From a phage, in NCBI GenBank assembly GCA_014630515.1, contig GCA_014630515.1_4091.1: 21,344 nt of DNA; one strand, 5' to 3'. The position numbers and the translations under genes were made by a program. The notes under the pieces were generated by a model. The model was not told the DNA's origin, ran no database searches, and worked only from the letters and a program-made list of their open reading frames with translations. Below, one piece after another: positions 4,075-18,293 of this stretch (positions within the stretch are counted from its first letter, which is position 1; each line of letters opens with the position of its first letter).

Positions 4075-4166
4075 GATACACTTCCGCACCCTATGGGTCA
4101 GTGAGTTATCTCTCAATGGATATATAATAGCAAAGGGACTGACCGGAGTCAATCCCTTTTTTAATC
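4075..4166 (-). repeat. repeat element B: conserved leader motif, embedded promoter, GC hairpin with T-run
   Basis: core GCACCCTATGGGTCAGTGAG; hairpin AAAGGGACTGACCGGAGTCAATCCC plus T6; minus-strand TTGACT, 17 bp, TATTAT (4124-4152). Confidence 0.6.
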
Positions 4167-4170
4167 TTTT

Positions 4171-4755
4171 TTATCGTGTTACCTTACTTGCTGCCACATC
4201 ACGCTTTTTATAGTACTGATTCCAGATATTGCTGGTTAAACCGTAATCAAGTACTTTAATAAGTCCATTACGATCCTGGCCGATATTCTGTTTTCTGATA
4301 TCTCTTATCGTTAGTGTTGATAATGTATCATCGACGTGTTGTAGTGCATCAGCAAAGCGGTGCTGGCGTTCAATGGCATTACGTTTAATATTGTACTTTA
4401 ATTCGTTGCACGCGTTAACGTGCTTCACACTGCCTTTGCTTGCAGTACTCAACCGATCCATAACGATAAACATATTATCAGGATCGCATAAATGCATATG
4501 CACCTTTGCAAAGTACTGTTTCAACTGAGGGCGGTCATAGTCTAAAAAATTCCATACCTTACATTCAGTTTCATTTTGTTCTACACCCGCATCACAATTC
4601 GCGACCTTAATCACTAACCGATCATTTAAAGCGAATACTATACGGGAAGAACCAGCACCGATGATCTCCAGGCCAGCTAACCGACAAGCTGAAAGGATCT
4701 CTTTGTTGGTTTCCATTTCTGACAGTGTACGGATGAATTTAGTATAATTACGCAT
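4171..4755 (-). CDS. protein-kinase-like protein (194 aa)
   Basis: ATG 4753-4755; AAGGAG SD 8 nt upstream; translation has glycine-rich IGAGSSR, lysine in VIKV, catalytic-loop-like IRDIRKQN and DFG-like VLDYG in the expected order. Confidence 0.6.
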   Translation of the reverse strand: MRNYTKFIRTLSEMETNKEILSACRLAGLEIIGAGSSRIVFALNDRLVIKVANCDAGVEQNETECKVWNFLDYDRPQLKQYFAKVHMHLCDPDNMFIVMDRLSTASKGSVKHVNACNELKYNIKRNAIERQHRFADALQHVDDTLSTLTIRDIRKQNIGQDRNGLIKVLDYGLTSNIWNQYYKKRDVAASKVTR

Positions 4756-4786
4756 TGCATGTTCTCCTTGAGTTAATGAAACTATA

Positions 4787-5029
4787 TTACAGTACTTTAC
4801 TATCAATGGCAACTACTTTTTTAACATTAACGGCGTGGATCACTTCCTTAGTGTTTTTAGTACTGAATACTTTCGCCGCTCCTTGTTCGACCGTGATGCG
4901 ATAGCGACCATTAACATCAACCATATTAATAAAGTCCGGCGTGCTGAATGGTGTTGTTTTACATTTCAGTACTGTTAACAGTTCCACCAGCGATGTAGTT
5001 TCTTTGATACGTTTTTCTAAAGTAATCAT
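4787..5029 (-). CDS. hypothetical protein (80 aa)
   Basis: ATG 5027-5029; GGGGGA SD; 31-nt gap to 4171..4755 without promoter, so co-transcribed; track start lies in leader. Confidence 0.65.
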   Translation of the reverse strand: MITLEKRIKETTSLVELLTVLKCKTTPFSTPDFINMVDVNGRYRITVEQGAAKVFSTKNTKEVIHAVNVKKVVAIDSKVL

Positions 5030-5057
5030 TTTGTTTCCCCCGTGTTGGTATATGTAC

Positions 5058-5086
5058 ATAGTACTAAAACATTTGAGTACTGTCAA
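5058..5086 (-). promoter_or_regulatory. sigma70-type promoter (TACTAT subtype)
   Basis: minus strand TTGACA, 17 bp, TACTAT; upstream stop codon abuts the -35. Confidence 0.5.
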
Positions 5087-5305
5087 TTAGATAATATTAT
5101 ATTTCTTAAAATAAAATGCGTCCTGTGTTGGTTGATACTCAATGCCATTGCCGTTATTGACTTCAACTAATAAACCTTTGTCAATAAGTTTTTTAATAGT
5201 ACGATACCCTTGTTGAAAATTGGTAAAATGTGAATCATTACGAAAGGTATAACCGTGCTTAACTGCTTCATCAATAGTTTTCTTTTCGATTTTAGATAAT
5301 TTCAT
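5087..5305 (-). CDS. hypothetical protein (72 aa)
   Basis: ATG 5303-5305; same promoter and leader as 4787..5029, which produces the identical artefactual N-termini in the track. Confidence 0.65.
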   Translation of the reverse strand: MKLSKIEKKTIDEAVKHGYTFRNDSHFTNFQQGYRTIKKLIDKGLLVEVNNGNGIEYQPTQDAFYFKKYNII

Positions 5306-5333
5306 TTTGTTTCTCCCGTGTTGGTATATGTAC

Positions 5334-5362
5334 ATAGTACTAAAACATTTGAGTACTGTCAA
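5334..5362 (-). promoter_or_regulatory. sigma70-type promoter (TACTAT subtype)
   Basis: minus strand TTGACA, 17 bp, TACTAT; duplicate of 5058-5086. Confidence 0.5.
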
Positions 5363-5613
5363 CGTGATATTAGTTTTATTTTCTTATTATATTGTTGGTG
5401 TTCATATAGGTTTATCTTTCCTGTGTTCTCTATTACTATTCTGTTGTTAGTGTCTACATCGATTACACGCAGTTTCCCGTTGCTTAACTTCCTTGGTAAT
5501 AGGTTACCATTAATAAACTCATTAGCAAGCTGTACGGCCTTTGTGATGATTCTCTGTGGTGCTTTATAGTGTACCCGTAAGATATTATCTTTATATAGTT
5601 GAACCTTAATCAT
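5359..5613 (-). CDS. hypothetical protein (84 aa)
   Basis: ATG 5611-5613; AGGAC SD; lies just downstream of the 5626-5652 terminator. Confidence 0.6.
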   Translation of the reverse strand: MIKVQLYKDNILRVHYKAPQRIITKAVQLANEFINGNLLPRKLSNGKLRVIDVDTNNRIVIENTGKINLYEHQQYNKKIKLISR

Positions 5614-5625
5614 TTTGTTTGTCCT

Positions 5626-5652
5626 ATAAAAAATGCGGGAACTGATCCCGCC
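5626..5652 (-). terminator. rho-independent terminator (minus strand)
   Basis: minus strand GCGGGA-tcagt-TCCCGC followed by ATTTTTTAT. Confidence 0.6.
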
Positions 5653-5674
5653 GTGTTGTTAGTACTGCAAGTTA

Positions 5675-6070
5675 TTAGATAACCTGGCGGCGTTTACTGA
5701 ATACTGTTACACGATTACCCTTACGGTCGTGTCGGATCTCTTTCTGGTTGCGAATCAGTTCACTTGGACGCTTAAGGTTTGCCAGGTGATCCGCGTGAGT
5801 CCATGCGGTGTGGTTTACCTGTACTTTGATATCAGAATCAGCGATAAATTCATCTTGTGCGTCAAGTATTGCCGCCAGCATATCCGCTCGTTTTAGTTCT
5901 GCTGCTGTCAGTACTGGCTCAGGTGAATTCACAATATCAGAGATTTCTTTGAACTGTACGGCCCAGCGTTGACCTTTCGGTGCATCTTTGCCCATGTCTT
6001 TAAATGCTGCTCCTTCCTCGCGTGCAACAATACGGGCAGCTTCACGGGTAGCGTAGAATTTAGTAATCAT
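5675..6070 (-). CDS. hypothetical protein (131 aa), paralog of 18533..18799
   Basis: ATG 6068-6070 with AGGA SD (ATG 6077-6079 also possible); shares ATRE.AR..AR..GA.FKDMG and HDRKGNRVTV blocks with 18533..18799. Confidence 0.65.
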   Translation of the reverse strand: MITKFYATREAARIVAREEGAAFKDMGKDAPKGQRWAVQFKEISDIVNSPEPVLTAAELKRADMLAAILDAQDEFIADSDIKVQVNHTAWTHADHLANLKRPSELIRNQKEIRHDRKGNRVTVFSKRRQVI

Positions 6071-7075: not shown

Positions 7076-7160
7076 TAGATACATTTATGCACCCGGTGGG
7101 CTGATTTGTTTCTATGCGTATATAATAGCAAAGGGACTGACCGGAGTCAATCCCTTTTTC
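7076..7160 (-). repeat. repeat element C: conserved leader motif, embedded promoter, GC hairpin with T-run
   Basis: core GCACCCGGTGGGCT; hairpin AAAGGGACTGACCGGAGTCAATCCC plus T5; minus-strand TTGACT, 17 bp, TATTAT (7122-7150). Confidence 0.6.
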
Positions 7161-8487: not shown

Positions 8488-8844
8488 CTATGATAAAATC
8501 ATGATAGGATATTCACTATCGATCAGTACCTCGAATCCAAAACCTTCGTACCATTCTTTAAGATTAAAGGCGTTATCTTCTCCCGTATCGCATTCTAAGA
8601 TGATACAATCTGAATCATCGGCGGCATCGATAAAGGCATTCATTAATTCGTTACCTTCACCATTGCCCCGACTATCAGGATCAACATAAAGAGAATCAAT
8701 AAACGCTACACGGTCATAATCAAGATCCGGTGCAATGATTCCACGTTTAACAAACCAGTACTGCAATTGTGCTACTTTGCCCTGTACTTGATAACCAGTG
8801 ATCTCGCCATTGTCAGTAGTACGCGTGATATGATGTATTCCCAT
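8488..8844 (-). CDS. GNAT-family N-acetyltransferase-like protein (118 aa)
   Basis: ATG 8842-8844; AGGAT SD; translation has GNAT motif-A-like YVDPDSRGNGEGNELM and C-terminal WYEGFGFE. Confidence 0.6.
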   Translation of the reverse strand: MGIHHITRTTDNGEITGYQVQGKVAQLQYWFVKRGIIAPDLDYDRVAFIDSLYVDPDSRGNGEGNELMNAFIDAADDSDCIILECDTGEDNAFNLKEWYEGFGFEVLIDSEYPIMILS

Positions 8845-8908: not shown

Positions 8909-9166
8909 TTATCTCATAGATCTATGCCAACAATTACGCGGATCTCTTTTAAAAGTACTATCATGATCCTCCTGGCAAGTGATACAGTACTTACACCCCT
9001 TAACGGCCTGGCGGCGATTCTCAGGGATTTTATCGCCGCAGTCGAGGCAATGTATCAGTGATTCTATTTGTGCGTTAATTTGCGTTCTAGCGTGGTTAAC
9101 AGCGGCCTGAATCACTGCGTTAATCTCGTCTTGCTCGGCCCCATCTTTTGTGAATCCTACAGCCAT
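8909..9166 (-). CDS. TraR/DksA-family C4 zinc-finger protein (85 aa)
   Basis: ATG 9164-9166; translation has CLDCGDKIPENRRQAVKGCKYCITCQ (CxxC, 17 residues, CxxC with conserved Arg). Confidence 0.65.
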   Translation of the reverse strand: MAVGFTKDGAEQDEINAVIQAAVNHARTQINAQIESLIHCLDCGDKIPENRRQAVKGCKYCITCQEDHDSTFKRDPRNCWHRSMR

Positions 9167-11805: not shown

Positions 11806-11892
11806 TTACACTTCCGCACCCGGTGGGCTAGTGAGCTATCTCTCAATGAATATATAATAGCAAAATGGCTGACCGAAGTCAACCACTTTTTT
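11806..11892 (-). repeat. repeat element D: conserved leader motif, embedded promoter, variant hairpin
   Basis: core GCACCCGGTGGGCTAGTGAG; hairpin TGGCTGACCGAAGTCAACCA with compensatory changes relative to A-C; T6 on plus strand; minus-strand TTGACT, 17 bp, TATTAT (11854-11882). Confidence 0.6.
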
Positions 11893-17621: not shown

Positions 17622-18233
17622 TTAATATTCGATAGATTCTACTACATCGTCGATAACGTTAAATTGATATTCGTTACCCTCAATCAGTCCTACAATGTTT
17701 TCAGTAGTAAACTGGTCTTCATAAGCATTTTCTAAATCACGGTACAGCTTACAAGATAATTCTCGGATAGTATCAGTCAGTAAGTTTTCCAGATCCTCAG
17801 CCAATGCAGCCTGTTTTACAGTTAAATCAGTGTAGCGAGTATCAACGCAACCGCCTACCGTGTTTTCGTGAGCGTAGCGTGATTGGGAACGTTCTACACT
17901 CATTTCCAAATCATCTTCGTTCAATAGGTGACGGATGGAACGATATTTCGTTAACGCCTTAACCTTGCGTAAAAACTTCTCAGCGTCAACGTGGTCAGTA
18001 CTGATTGATGCACCGTCACCTTGCGACCAAAAACCACTGTATTGCAATTCAGCTTCATCTATGCCGTATTCTGGCAGTACTGTTTCTTTATAGTATTCCA
18101 GTACTGATTCAGCAAAGAAATTATCCTCACTTGCACGTTCCCGATCCCGAACCAGTTCGATAGCCGCCGCTTGTTGTTCTGCGTTCAGTTCAGAAAAATC
18201 CATAACGAAAGTAGTAGTAGTGATAGTTTTCAT
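17622..18233 (-). CDS. acidic protein (203 aa)
   Basis: ATG 18231-18233; GAGGG SD; strongly Asp/Glu-rich; largest gene in the window. Confidence 0.7.
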   Translation of the reverse strand: MKTITTTTFVMDFSELNAEQQAAAIELVRDRERASEDNFFAESVLEYYKETVLPEYGIDEAELQYSGFWSQGDGASISTDHVDAEKFLRKVKALTKYRSIRHLLNEDDLEMSVERSQSRYAHENTVGGCVDTRYTDLTVKQAALAEDLENLLTDTIRELSCKLYRDLENAYEDQFTTENIVGLIEGNEYQFNVIDDVVESIEY

Positions 18234-18265: not shown

Positions 18266-18293
18266 ATTATACGCTTTTAAAAACAATTGTCAA
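18266..18293 (-). promoter_or_regulatory. early sigma70-type promoter
   Basis: minus strand TTGACA, 16 bp, TATAAT. Confidence 0.6.

Follow-up and report, generated by a model that had tools for sequence, protein, structure and literature searches.

What can a kinase core do without the lobe that docks its substrate? The question is posed by one gene in a 21,344-nucleotide stretch of phage DNA (GenBank assembly GCA_014630515.1, contig GCA_014630515.1_4091.1), which was analyzed over its full length and is called the window here. The gene lies at 4171..4755 on the minus strand, and its product is a 194-residue protein of 22.4 kDa with an isoelectric point (pI) of 9.2. An earlier note, made from the DNA letters alone, described this product as a minimal protein-kinase-like early protein with a possible part in host takeover or anti-defence. 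The open reading frame (ORF) exists as claimed, and its fold and motifs, as well as its probable timing, support the kinase-like interpretation. The takeover or anti-defence role is speculation. The ORF, the family profile, and the kinase fold together identify a coding sequence for a minimal protein-kinase-like protein of family PHROG 4301. The ORF initiates at the ATG at 4755, and a ribosome-binding site read from the sequence, AAGGAG (4764..4769, minus strand), is located 8 nt upstream. A longer frame starting with TTG at 4812 was rejected because every homologue begins at the position of the ATG-4755 methionine.

The four motifs quoted in the earlier note are present exactly as written, and they rank as the best conserved sites within the family. 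Conservation was calculated from 215 aligned relatives, and the codons of all the motifs are on the minus strand. The glycine-rich nucleotide-binding loop IGAGSSRIVF (residues 32–41; 4633..4662) aligns with GSGTCGQVW of MKK7 and has the family motif GxGSSRxV[FY]. The first two glycines of the G33-A-G35-S-S-R38 segment align with those of MKK7, and the canonical third glycine is replaced by an invariant arginine (G35 97%, S36 96%, S37 92%, R38 100%). The VIKV motif (residues 48–51; 4603..4614) carries the β3 residue Lys50, the equivalent of the VAIK lysine, which is conserved in 100% of the relatives. The αC signature is G57-x-x-Q60-N61-x-x-E64, with G57, Q60, and E64 at 100% and N61 at 98%; the codon of Glu64, the αC glutamate, is at 4564..4566 as calculated from the ATG at 4755. 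The catalytic loop IRDIRKQN (residues 150–157; 4285..4308) contains Asp152 and Asn157 and aligns with RDIKPSNI of MKK4. This loop had been read as an HRD-x-K-x-x-N pattern, and that reading stands in part. Asp152 aligns to the HRD aspartate and is 98% conserved (G159 99%). The lysine, however, is at +3 from Asp152 and unconserved, the +2 lysine is absent, and the preceding Ile-Arg is not conserved. The His/Arg of HRD is likewise not conserved in the family, and most relatives have a glycine directly before the aspartate. Position 157 (+5) is asparagine in 18% of the relatives, confined to the clade of the window protein, and histidine or serine in the rest. The DFG-equivalent metal-binding motif is VLDYG (residues 168–172; 4240..4254), which aligns with CDFG of MKK4 and MKK7 and contributes Asp170 (100%), Tyr171 (87%), and Gly172 (100%). 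The protein-kinase-like (PKL) catalytic set of β3 Lys, αC Glu, catalytic-loop Asp, and DFG Asp is conserved.

The word minimal in the earlier note was apt. The protein stops 22 residues beyond DYG, and only one helix follows that motif. In the structural model, this C-terminal helix (residues ~175–193; 4174..4233, minus strand) replaces the activation segment and carries Tyr182 and a basic YYKKR sequence. Tyr182 is 92% conserved. The basic residues beyond it are not conserved across the family (Lys plus Arg ~20–33%), and many relatives end there. The tail after DxG has a median length of 26 residues in 101 single-domain relatives. Because this short tail is family-wide, the activation segment, the APE motif, and the later C-lobe subdomains are absent by design and not through truncation of the window gene.

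The fold was predicted with AlphaFold2 (AF2). An alignment of 11 close homologues gave an unusable model with a predicted local distance difference test score (pLDDT) of 48, and a later 47-sequence alignment gave a pLDDT of 95.8 and a predicted template modeling score of 0.90. The N-lobe of the model consists of two N-terminal helices, β1 (30–34), the glycine-rich loop, β2 (38–42), β3 (47–52, with K50), αC (55–73, with E64), and β4/5. The C-lobe follows the hinge and consists of αD (109–120), αE (130–145), the catalytic loop (150–157), β7/8, DYG (170–172), and the helix at 175–193. This is the bilobal PKL fold, with a five-stranded N-lobe plus αC, a hinge, and a helical C-lobe bearing the catalytic loop and a DFG-bearing hairpin. 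The motifs fall where they are expected, with the glycine-rich loop between β1 and β2, the lysine on β3, the D..N loop after αE, and DYG after β8. A Foldseek search of the PDB returned 36 matches at E ≤ 1e-3, nearly all of them protein-kinase-like folds together with a few SAICAR synthetase entries; the match to PRPK had a template modeling (TM) score of 0.47.

Sequence searches point the same way. The protein on its own matches Pfam Pkinase (PF00069) with E 0.004 and 17.0 bits, under the 31.7-bit cutoff. In NCBIfam the window protein had no match and its relatives had two at chance level, and PADLOC returned weak generic kinase matches to PD-T4-6 only. All 19 PDB matches at E ≤ 10 in the single-sequence search are kinases (best E 0.005), and RDIRKQNI...VLDYG pairs with RDIKPSNI...LCDFG of MKK4 so that D152 and D170 fall on the HRD and DFG aspartates. 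A profile of 11 homologues matched 319 PDB sequences with a best E of 1.5e-4, and its alignment to MKK7 spans the glycine-rich loop to past DFG. A profile of 47 diverse relatives matched 432 sequences at E ≤ 1 with a best E of 3.5e-5. Among the profile matches listed, almost all are protein kinases. Five of the 47 relatives match Pkinase individually (E ≤ 0.01, best E 5.7e-6). The profile and fold searches that the earlier note had set as its own test returned kinase folds almost exclusively, and the motifs do align to catalytic positions. A kinase-like fold and homology to kinases are virtually certain.

PHROG 4301 is annotated as "unknown function". The window protein matches this family over residues 3–188 (E 1.8e-41, 143 bits), as do eight of eight sampled relatives from different subclusters. 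An exhaustive profile search identified 2,084 cluster representatives (50% identity) at E ≤ 1e-3, with 254 at E ≤ 1e-10. Most representatives are 180–300 residues long, and none has a precomputed Pfam domain or an informative name. Several members are found on contigs of 160–340 kb, that is, in jumbo phages. The family is very divergent (mean column identity 24%) and has the signature GxGSSRxV[FY] ... [VL]K[IV]AxNxxGxxQNxxE ... D-x4-5-[NHS]-[WYI]-G ... [LI]DYG[LF]xxx[VI]xxx[YH]Y. The clade of the window protein (Asteriusvirus, RaK2-like, and Munch-like phages) is a short basic branch of 183–212 residues with a pI of 9.2–9.8 and the +5 asparagine. Other branches are 215–300 residues long, and the three sampled members that lie among RNA-repair genes are acidic (pI 4.6–5.1). 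The kinase call for the window gene is not new. GenBank names for identical or related proteins include "protein kinase domain-containing protein", "PknA", "PRP4", and "putative protein kinase", and UniProt L7TKF0 is likewise annotated as a kinase. The Sharanji genome paper (PMC11895373) lists WNN14351.1, the orthologue in that phage, as a protein kinase whose function is unknown. At a stage when the search had yielded 160 proteins, about 20 of them were 450–970 residues long and contained 2–4 tandem whole mini-kinase modules (P0021, P0022, P0026, P0029, P0033, P0036, and about 15 more; metagenomic). The motif pair K-x-A...QN..E / D-x-G occurs three times in P0021 and four times in P0022. These proteins may be genuinely multi-headed or may have been fused by gene calling.

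The window derives from an Asteriusvirus jumbo coliphage of the 121Q/PBECO4/G17 group. The 2.1 kb around the kinase gene is 95–98% identical to most Asteriusvirus phages (348–386 kb), including WPEC5, G17, Sharanji, fEgEco12, and PBECO4, and ~90% identical to 121Q, the sole return of a locus search with a narrow alignment. Proteins with 100% identity occur in fEgEco12, ph0011, WPEC3/5, and BAU.Micro_ELP-22, and identity is 36–40% to proteins of Erwinia phage Kaldavass and of the RaK2-like and Munch-like Klebsiella/Salmonella jumbo phages. In phages with mapped ends, the gene is inside a direct terminal repeat of ~20–21 kb. The length of this repeat is 20,668 bp for Sharanji (PMC11895373), and for fEgEco12 it is 20,993 bp (PMC13070987). 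Because these mapped repeats have that span and contain the gene, the window coincides roughly with the Asteriusvirus terminal repeat. Ten sites in the window match the sigma-70 consensus promoter perfectly (12/12, TTGACA-16/17-TATAAT), and every one of them is on the minus (coding) strand, with −35 elements at 18293, 10605, 10016, 8901, 7865, 6913, 6573, 6143, 3726, and 2536, alongside numerous 10–11/12 sites. This promoter set fits very strong early transcription of the terminal repeat by the host RNA polymerase. In the related phage CBB, clusters of RpoD-like promoters before short ORFs reach into the terminal repeat and were read as an early region (PMC5259590). The location in the terminal repeat, the sigma-70 promoters, and the parallel with CBB make early expression of the kinase gene by the host polymerase plausible.

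We propose that the gene product, from an Asteriusvirus jumbo coliphage, is a minimal protein-kinase-like phosphotransferase that is competent for catalysis. It would retain the core consisting of the glycine-rich loop, Lys50, Glu64, Asp152/Asn157, and the Mg-binding Asp170 of DYG. The regulatory and peptide-docking parts (activation segment with APE and later C-lobe subdomains) would be gone, with a single C-terminal helix in their place. The gene would be transcribed from the ~21-kb terminal repeat by the host sigma-70 RNA polymerase, and the protein would appear within the first minutes of infection. It would move the γ-phosphate of ATP to Ser/Thr (or Tyr) residues of host or phage proteins. 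The lack of an activation loop would leave it constitutively active, and by analogy with T7 gp0.7 (T7K) it would function in host takeover or counter-defence. The strict selection on the Lys-Glu-Asp-Asp phosphotransfer set, seen in the conservation of K50, E64, D152, D170, and G172, argues for an active enzyme and not a pseudokinase. We consider it likely that the protein binds ATP and is catalytically active. Belief and doubt are equal on whether its substrate is a protein, and the explanation as a whole, protein substrate included, is finely balanced. It is still more probable than any single alternative, and most of the remaining probability is divided among RNA, small-molecule, and ATPase-only readings.

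Several findings weigh against this explanation. The elements with which Hanks-type kinases bind peptide substrates are absent. Among kinases of like size or architecture, those best studied often act on acceptors other than proteins (ArkI on tRNA, aminoglycoside phosphotransferases (APH) on aminoglycosides) or are ATPases (Bud32 and RIO kinases). The score is below the Pfam Pkinase threshold (17 versus 31.7 bits), the +2 lysine typical of Ser/Thr kinases is missing, the +5 asparagine is unconserved, and the third glycine of the nucleotide-binding loop is an invariant arginine. The three-dimensional geometry of K50/E64/D152/D170 in the model rests on topology and alignments. These phages also encode a second, T7K-like kinase, and a takeover role need not fall to the window protein.

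The alternatives differ in whether the kinase resemblance is real, whether chemistry takes place, and what accepts the phosphate. Chance motifs in an AT-rich phage ORF of unrelated fold would explain why the single-sequence scores are marginal (Pfam 17 bits, PDB E 0.005) and why the first AF2 model, from a shallow alignment, had a pLDDT of 48. We regard this reading as effectively refuted. A genuine kinase fold could instead serve as an ATP-binding ATPase or switch, or as a pseudokinase-like binder that inhibits or re-targets a host protein by binding. All substrate-docking elements are absent, the glycine-rich and catalytic loops are non-canonical, and the fold resembles those of Bud32 and RIO, activation-segment-free kinases that act as ATPases. 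However, full conservation of K50, E64, and D170 and near-full conservation of D152 in a very divergent family argue for retained γ-phosphate chemistry, and pseudokinases typically lack at least one of the K50/E64/D152/D170 equivalents. An ATPase or binder is, in our view, very unlikely.

The acceptor could be RNA. The protein would then be an RNA (tRNA) kinase or an RNA-directed ATPase of the ArkI/Bud32/RIO kind that modifies or protects host or phage RNA early in infection. ArkI offers parallels, as it is a 216-residue protein with K51/E65 and a basic YKR helix and the window protein has K50/E64/D170, a YYKKR helix, and a pI of 9.2. Eleven neighbourhoods of relatives were sampled, and RNA-repair genes occur beside the distant relatives P0200, P0247, and P0161. 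In this large acidic branch, the mini-kinase is immediately upstream of AAA_33/tRNA_lig_CPD (Pnkp-like), NUDIX, T4 RNA ligase 1, and HD genes on jumbo phage contigs of 286–340 kb (loci L009, L010, and L011, gene 5001–5684; L012/L013). P0200 and P0247 are directly upstream of the Pnkp-like gene, P0161 has NUDIX and HD genes nearby, and P0247 and P0161 have a CCA-adding enzyme within ~4 kb, so this enzyme is near the mini-kinase in two of the three RNA-repair contexts sampled. The HGQ and DFE motifs of ArkI nevertheless differ from the xxD and DYG of the family, and the other eight neighbourhoods show no RNA-repair link. The relatives beside RNA-repair genes are acidic, which suits RNA binding poorly, and the basic residues after Tyr182 are unconserved; for these last two reasons the RNA lead was downgraded, and it is quite unlikely to be correct. 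A small-molecule or nucleotide kinase would apply APH-like chemistry to a metabolite, a second messenger, or a cell-envelope precursor, for example to switch off an immune signalling nucleotide or to divert a metabolite. The C-terminal helical substrate subdomain of APH-type enzymes is absent, however (targets of 284–301 residues versus 194; target-normalised TM ~0.3). Sequence profiles recover protein kinases and not the APH or choline-kinase families, and no conserved metabolic partner gene is adjacent. We assign this alternative, its example included, a very low probability. A broader reading takes PHROG 4301 as an uncharacterised, phage-specific branch of the kinase superfamily that is cut to the phosphotransfer core and uses a non-protein acceptor, with the jumbo phage version an immediate-early counter-defence or RNA-protection enzyme. 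Arg38 and Gln60/Asn61 could be ATP-site invariants of its own, the tandem fusions of 2–4 modules could be its multi-headed versions, and the acceptor could be an RNA 2′/3′/5′-OH, a nucleotide second messenger, or another non-protein molecule. This broader reading is unlikely.

The kinase gene is the second in a short unit that consists of a promoter-like site, an 80-residue gene, the kinase gene, and a terminator, all on the minus strand. The promoter-like site TTGACA-17-TACTAT (5058..5086) is within a 47-nt repeat element and is the likely start of the transcription unit. The 80-residue gene (4787..5029) has no family assignment and no match in Pfam or PADLOC; it shows weak similarity (37% over 43 residues, E 2e-6) to the gene that immediately precedes the kinase gene in Munch. 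A 31-nt gap separates the stop of this gene (4787) from the kinase ATG, and no terminator was found within it. A hairpin terminator with a 12-bp stem (4132..4159) begins 12 nt past the kinase stop codon, and the G17 annotation marks the same element as a terminator. Its stem holds a −35-like TTGACT, and TATTAT comes after the stem, so that the two make up a promoter-like site in front of the gene that follows. Co-transcription of the two genes, which the earlier note had asserted, is plausible because the gap lacks a terminator, the promoter-like site precedes the pair, and the strong terminator follows it.

Two repeated elements were observed on the minus strand in this region. The 28-nt hairpin AAAGGGATTGACTCCGGTCAGTCCCTTT followed by GCTATTATAT has four occurrences, of which those at 4132–4159, 2211–2238, and 7130–7157 are identical and that at 11862–11889 is a variant. 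It scores as a terminator, and the TTGACT in its stem is 17 nt from a TATTAT that has a TG extension. The element resembles a cassette in which terminator and promoter are combined and which would divide early transcription units. The 47-nt sequence TTGACAGTACTCAAATGTTTTAGTACTATGTACATATACCAACACGG is repeated exactly at 5040–5086 and 5316–5362, and no such repeat is expected by chance. It supplies the promoter and leader for two small genes, 5087–5305 and 4787–5029, that follow one another and are unrelated. Related phages differ by ~0.5-kb insertions around this region (two-piece matches), which suggests that it is a hotspot for promoter-plus-small-gene cassettes.

Three other genes of the window, all on the minus strand, have recognizable products. 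These are an 84-residue ParE-like protein with the Pfam ParE_like toxin domain PF24732 (5359–5613; E 6.4e-11, over threshold), a 118-residue small GNAT acetyltransferase (8488–8844; E 3.9e-9), and an 85-residue DksA/TraR C4 zinc-finger protein (8909–9166; E 1.1e-11). The GNAT and DksA/TraR genes are side by side in the terminal repeat, and their products are candidate host-modifying or RNA polymerase-binding early proteins. The presence of these three genes in the repeat fits a host-manipulation module. A 203-residue ORF at 17622–18233 was considered as a paralogue of the kinase-like protein and rejected. The 38 predicted proteins of the terminal repeat contain 16.4% Ser+Thr+Tyr compared to 21.0% in 25 genes of the largely structural region of fEgEco12 (150–200 kb; Mann-Whitney p 0.002), a comparison set skewed by S/T-rich fibre proteins. 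It is probably these fibre proteins, rather than kinase-driven depletion, that account for the difference. Ser/Thr/Tyr depletion, which marks phages with a promiscuous T7K, is uninformative here, given the fibre-protein confounding and the second kinase in the phage.

The sampled neighbourhoods are heterogeneous across the family, and no conserved operon partner emerged from them. In the window clade, the kinase gene is always within an array of small co-directional genes. A ParE-like gene is 0–4 genes upstream, except on one 26-kb contig with no ParE-like match on record. The ParE-like homologue is two genes upstream of the kinase in RaK2, directly upstream on a 101-kb metagenomic contig, and 1.4 kb upstream on another. 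This recurring neighbour may reflect synteny among related jumbo phages. In two subfamilies (L020, 5001–5732; L022, 4001–4903), the mini-kinase is a lone opposite-strand gene inside a T4-like replication module, in a slot between the 5′-3′ exonuclease and dUTPase/RecA/gp32. The remaining sampled neighbourhoods contained nothing informative.

Phage kinases T7K and JSS1_004 are broad anti-defence weapons (PMC13645617). PHROG 4301 is different from the T7K family, much larger, phage-specific, and biochemically uncharacterised, and it has no Pfam model. With the kinase call for the window gene already public, what would be gained is a characterisation of the family and the identity of its substrate. 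The protein is small (22 kDa) and is encoded in the terminal repeat of coliphages for which Escherichia coli K-12 can serve as host, Sharanji having been isolated on MG1655, and this offers an easy experimental entry. Identification of the substrate would give a function to thousands of phage genes and would show what a kinase core is capable of without a substrate-docking lobe.

Compared with Hanks-type kinases (MKK4/MKK7, MST1, PknB), the window protein lacks the activation segment with APE, the later C-lobe subdomains, the conserved HRD His/Arg, and the +2 lysine, and it has arginine for the third glycine of the nucleotide-binding loop. Tested as a Hanks-type kinase, it falls short of the PF00069 threshold and has neither the HRDxKxxN loop nor subdomains VIII–XI (APE, αF Asp, αG–αI). 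Aminoglycoside and macrolide phosphotransferases add a C-terminal helical substrate-binding subdomain to the PKL core, which the window protein does not. Kinases of the Bud32/PRPK, RIO, and HopBF1 types show no sequence-level relationship to the window protein. They have more C-lobe helices and either act in defined complexes (KEOPS, pre-40S) or target one particular client, whereas no partner is evident for the window protein in the 11 neighbourhoods. ArkI is a 216-residue tRNA U47 2′-kinase with K51/E65/D149 that lacks subdomains VIII and X, requires the basic YKR motif of its C-terminal helix for activity, and is encoded in an operon with tRNA nucleotidyltransferase, the CCA enzyme (PMC9095486). 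ArkI (archaeal/bacterial, AQ578 family; PDB 7VNX, 8YV5) has HGQ and DFE, whereas the window family has an Asp-containing loop and DYG. No sequence-level match between them was found, and ArkI is structurally no closer to the window protein than generic kinases are. The defining features of ArkI/AQ578 (HGQ loop, DFE, YKR, tRNA 2′-kinase) do not describe the window protein.

The functional analogy is with T7K, which phosphorylates host proteins broadly and disarms defence systems, and T7K homologues have been reported in G17 and Munch (PMC13645617). Both T7K and the window protein are phage-encoded kinase folds, and T7K is transcribed early by the host RNA polymerase, as the window gene plausibly is. 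T7K-like proteins are among the structural matches of the window protein in BFVD (E ~1e-5 to 1e-6). T7K differs in having 359 residues, a C-terminal shut-off/DNA-binding domain, and DPV for DFG, whereas the window protein has 194 residues, DYG, and no extra domain. Membership in the T7K family (PHROG 2828) was rejected, as the window protein has no match at E ≤ 1 and T7K itself scores 1.6e-169. Kinship was also rejected, as an hhalign comparison of the family profile with T7K gave 2.9% probability and covered the N-lobe only. The same phages encode a separate T7K homologue elsewhere in their genomes (WNN14432.1 in Sharanji; also in G17). With T7K homologues present and the window protein outside the T7K family, the Asteriusvirus phages are, on sequence grounds, carriers of two unrelated kinases.

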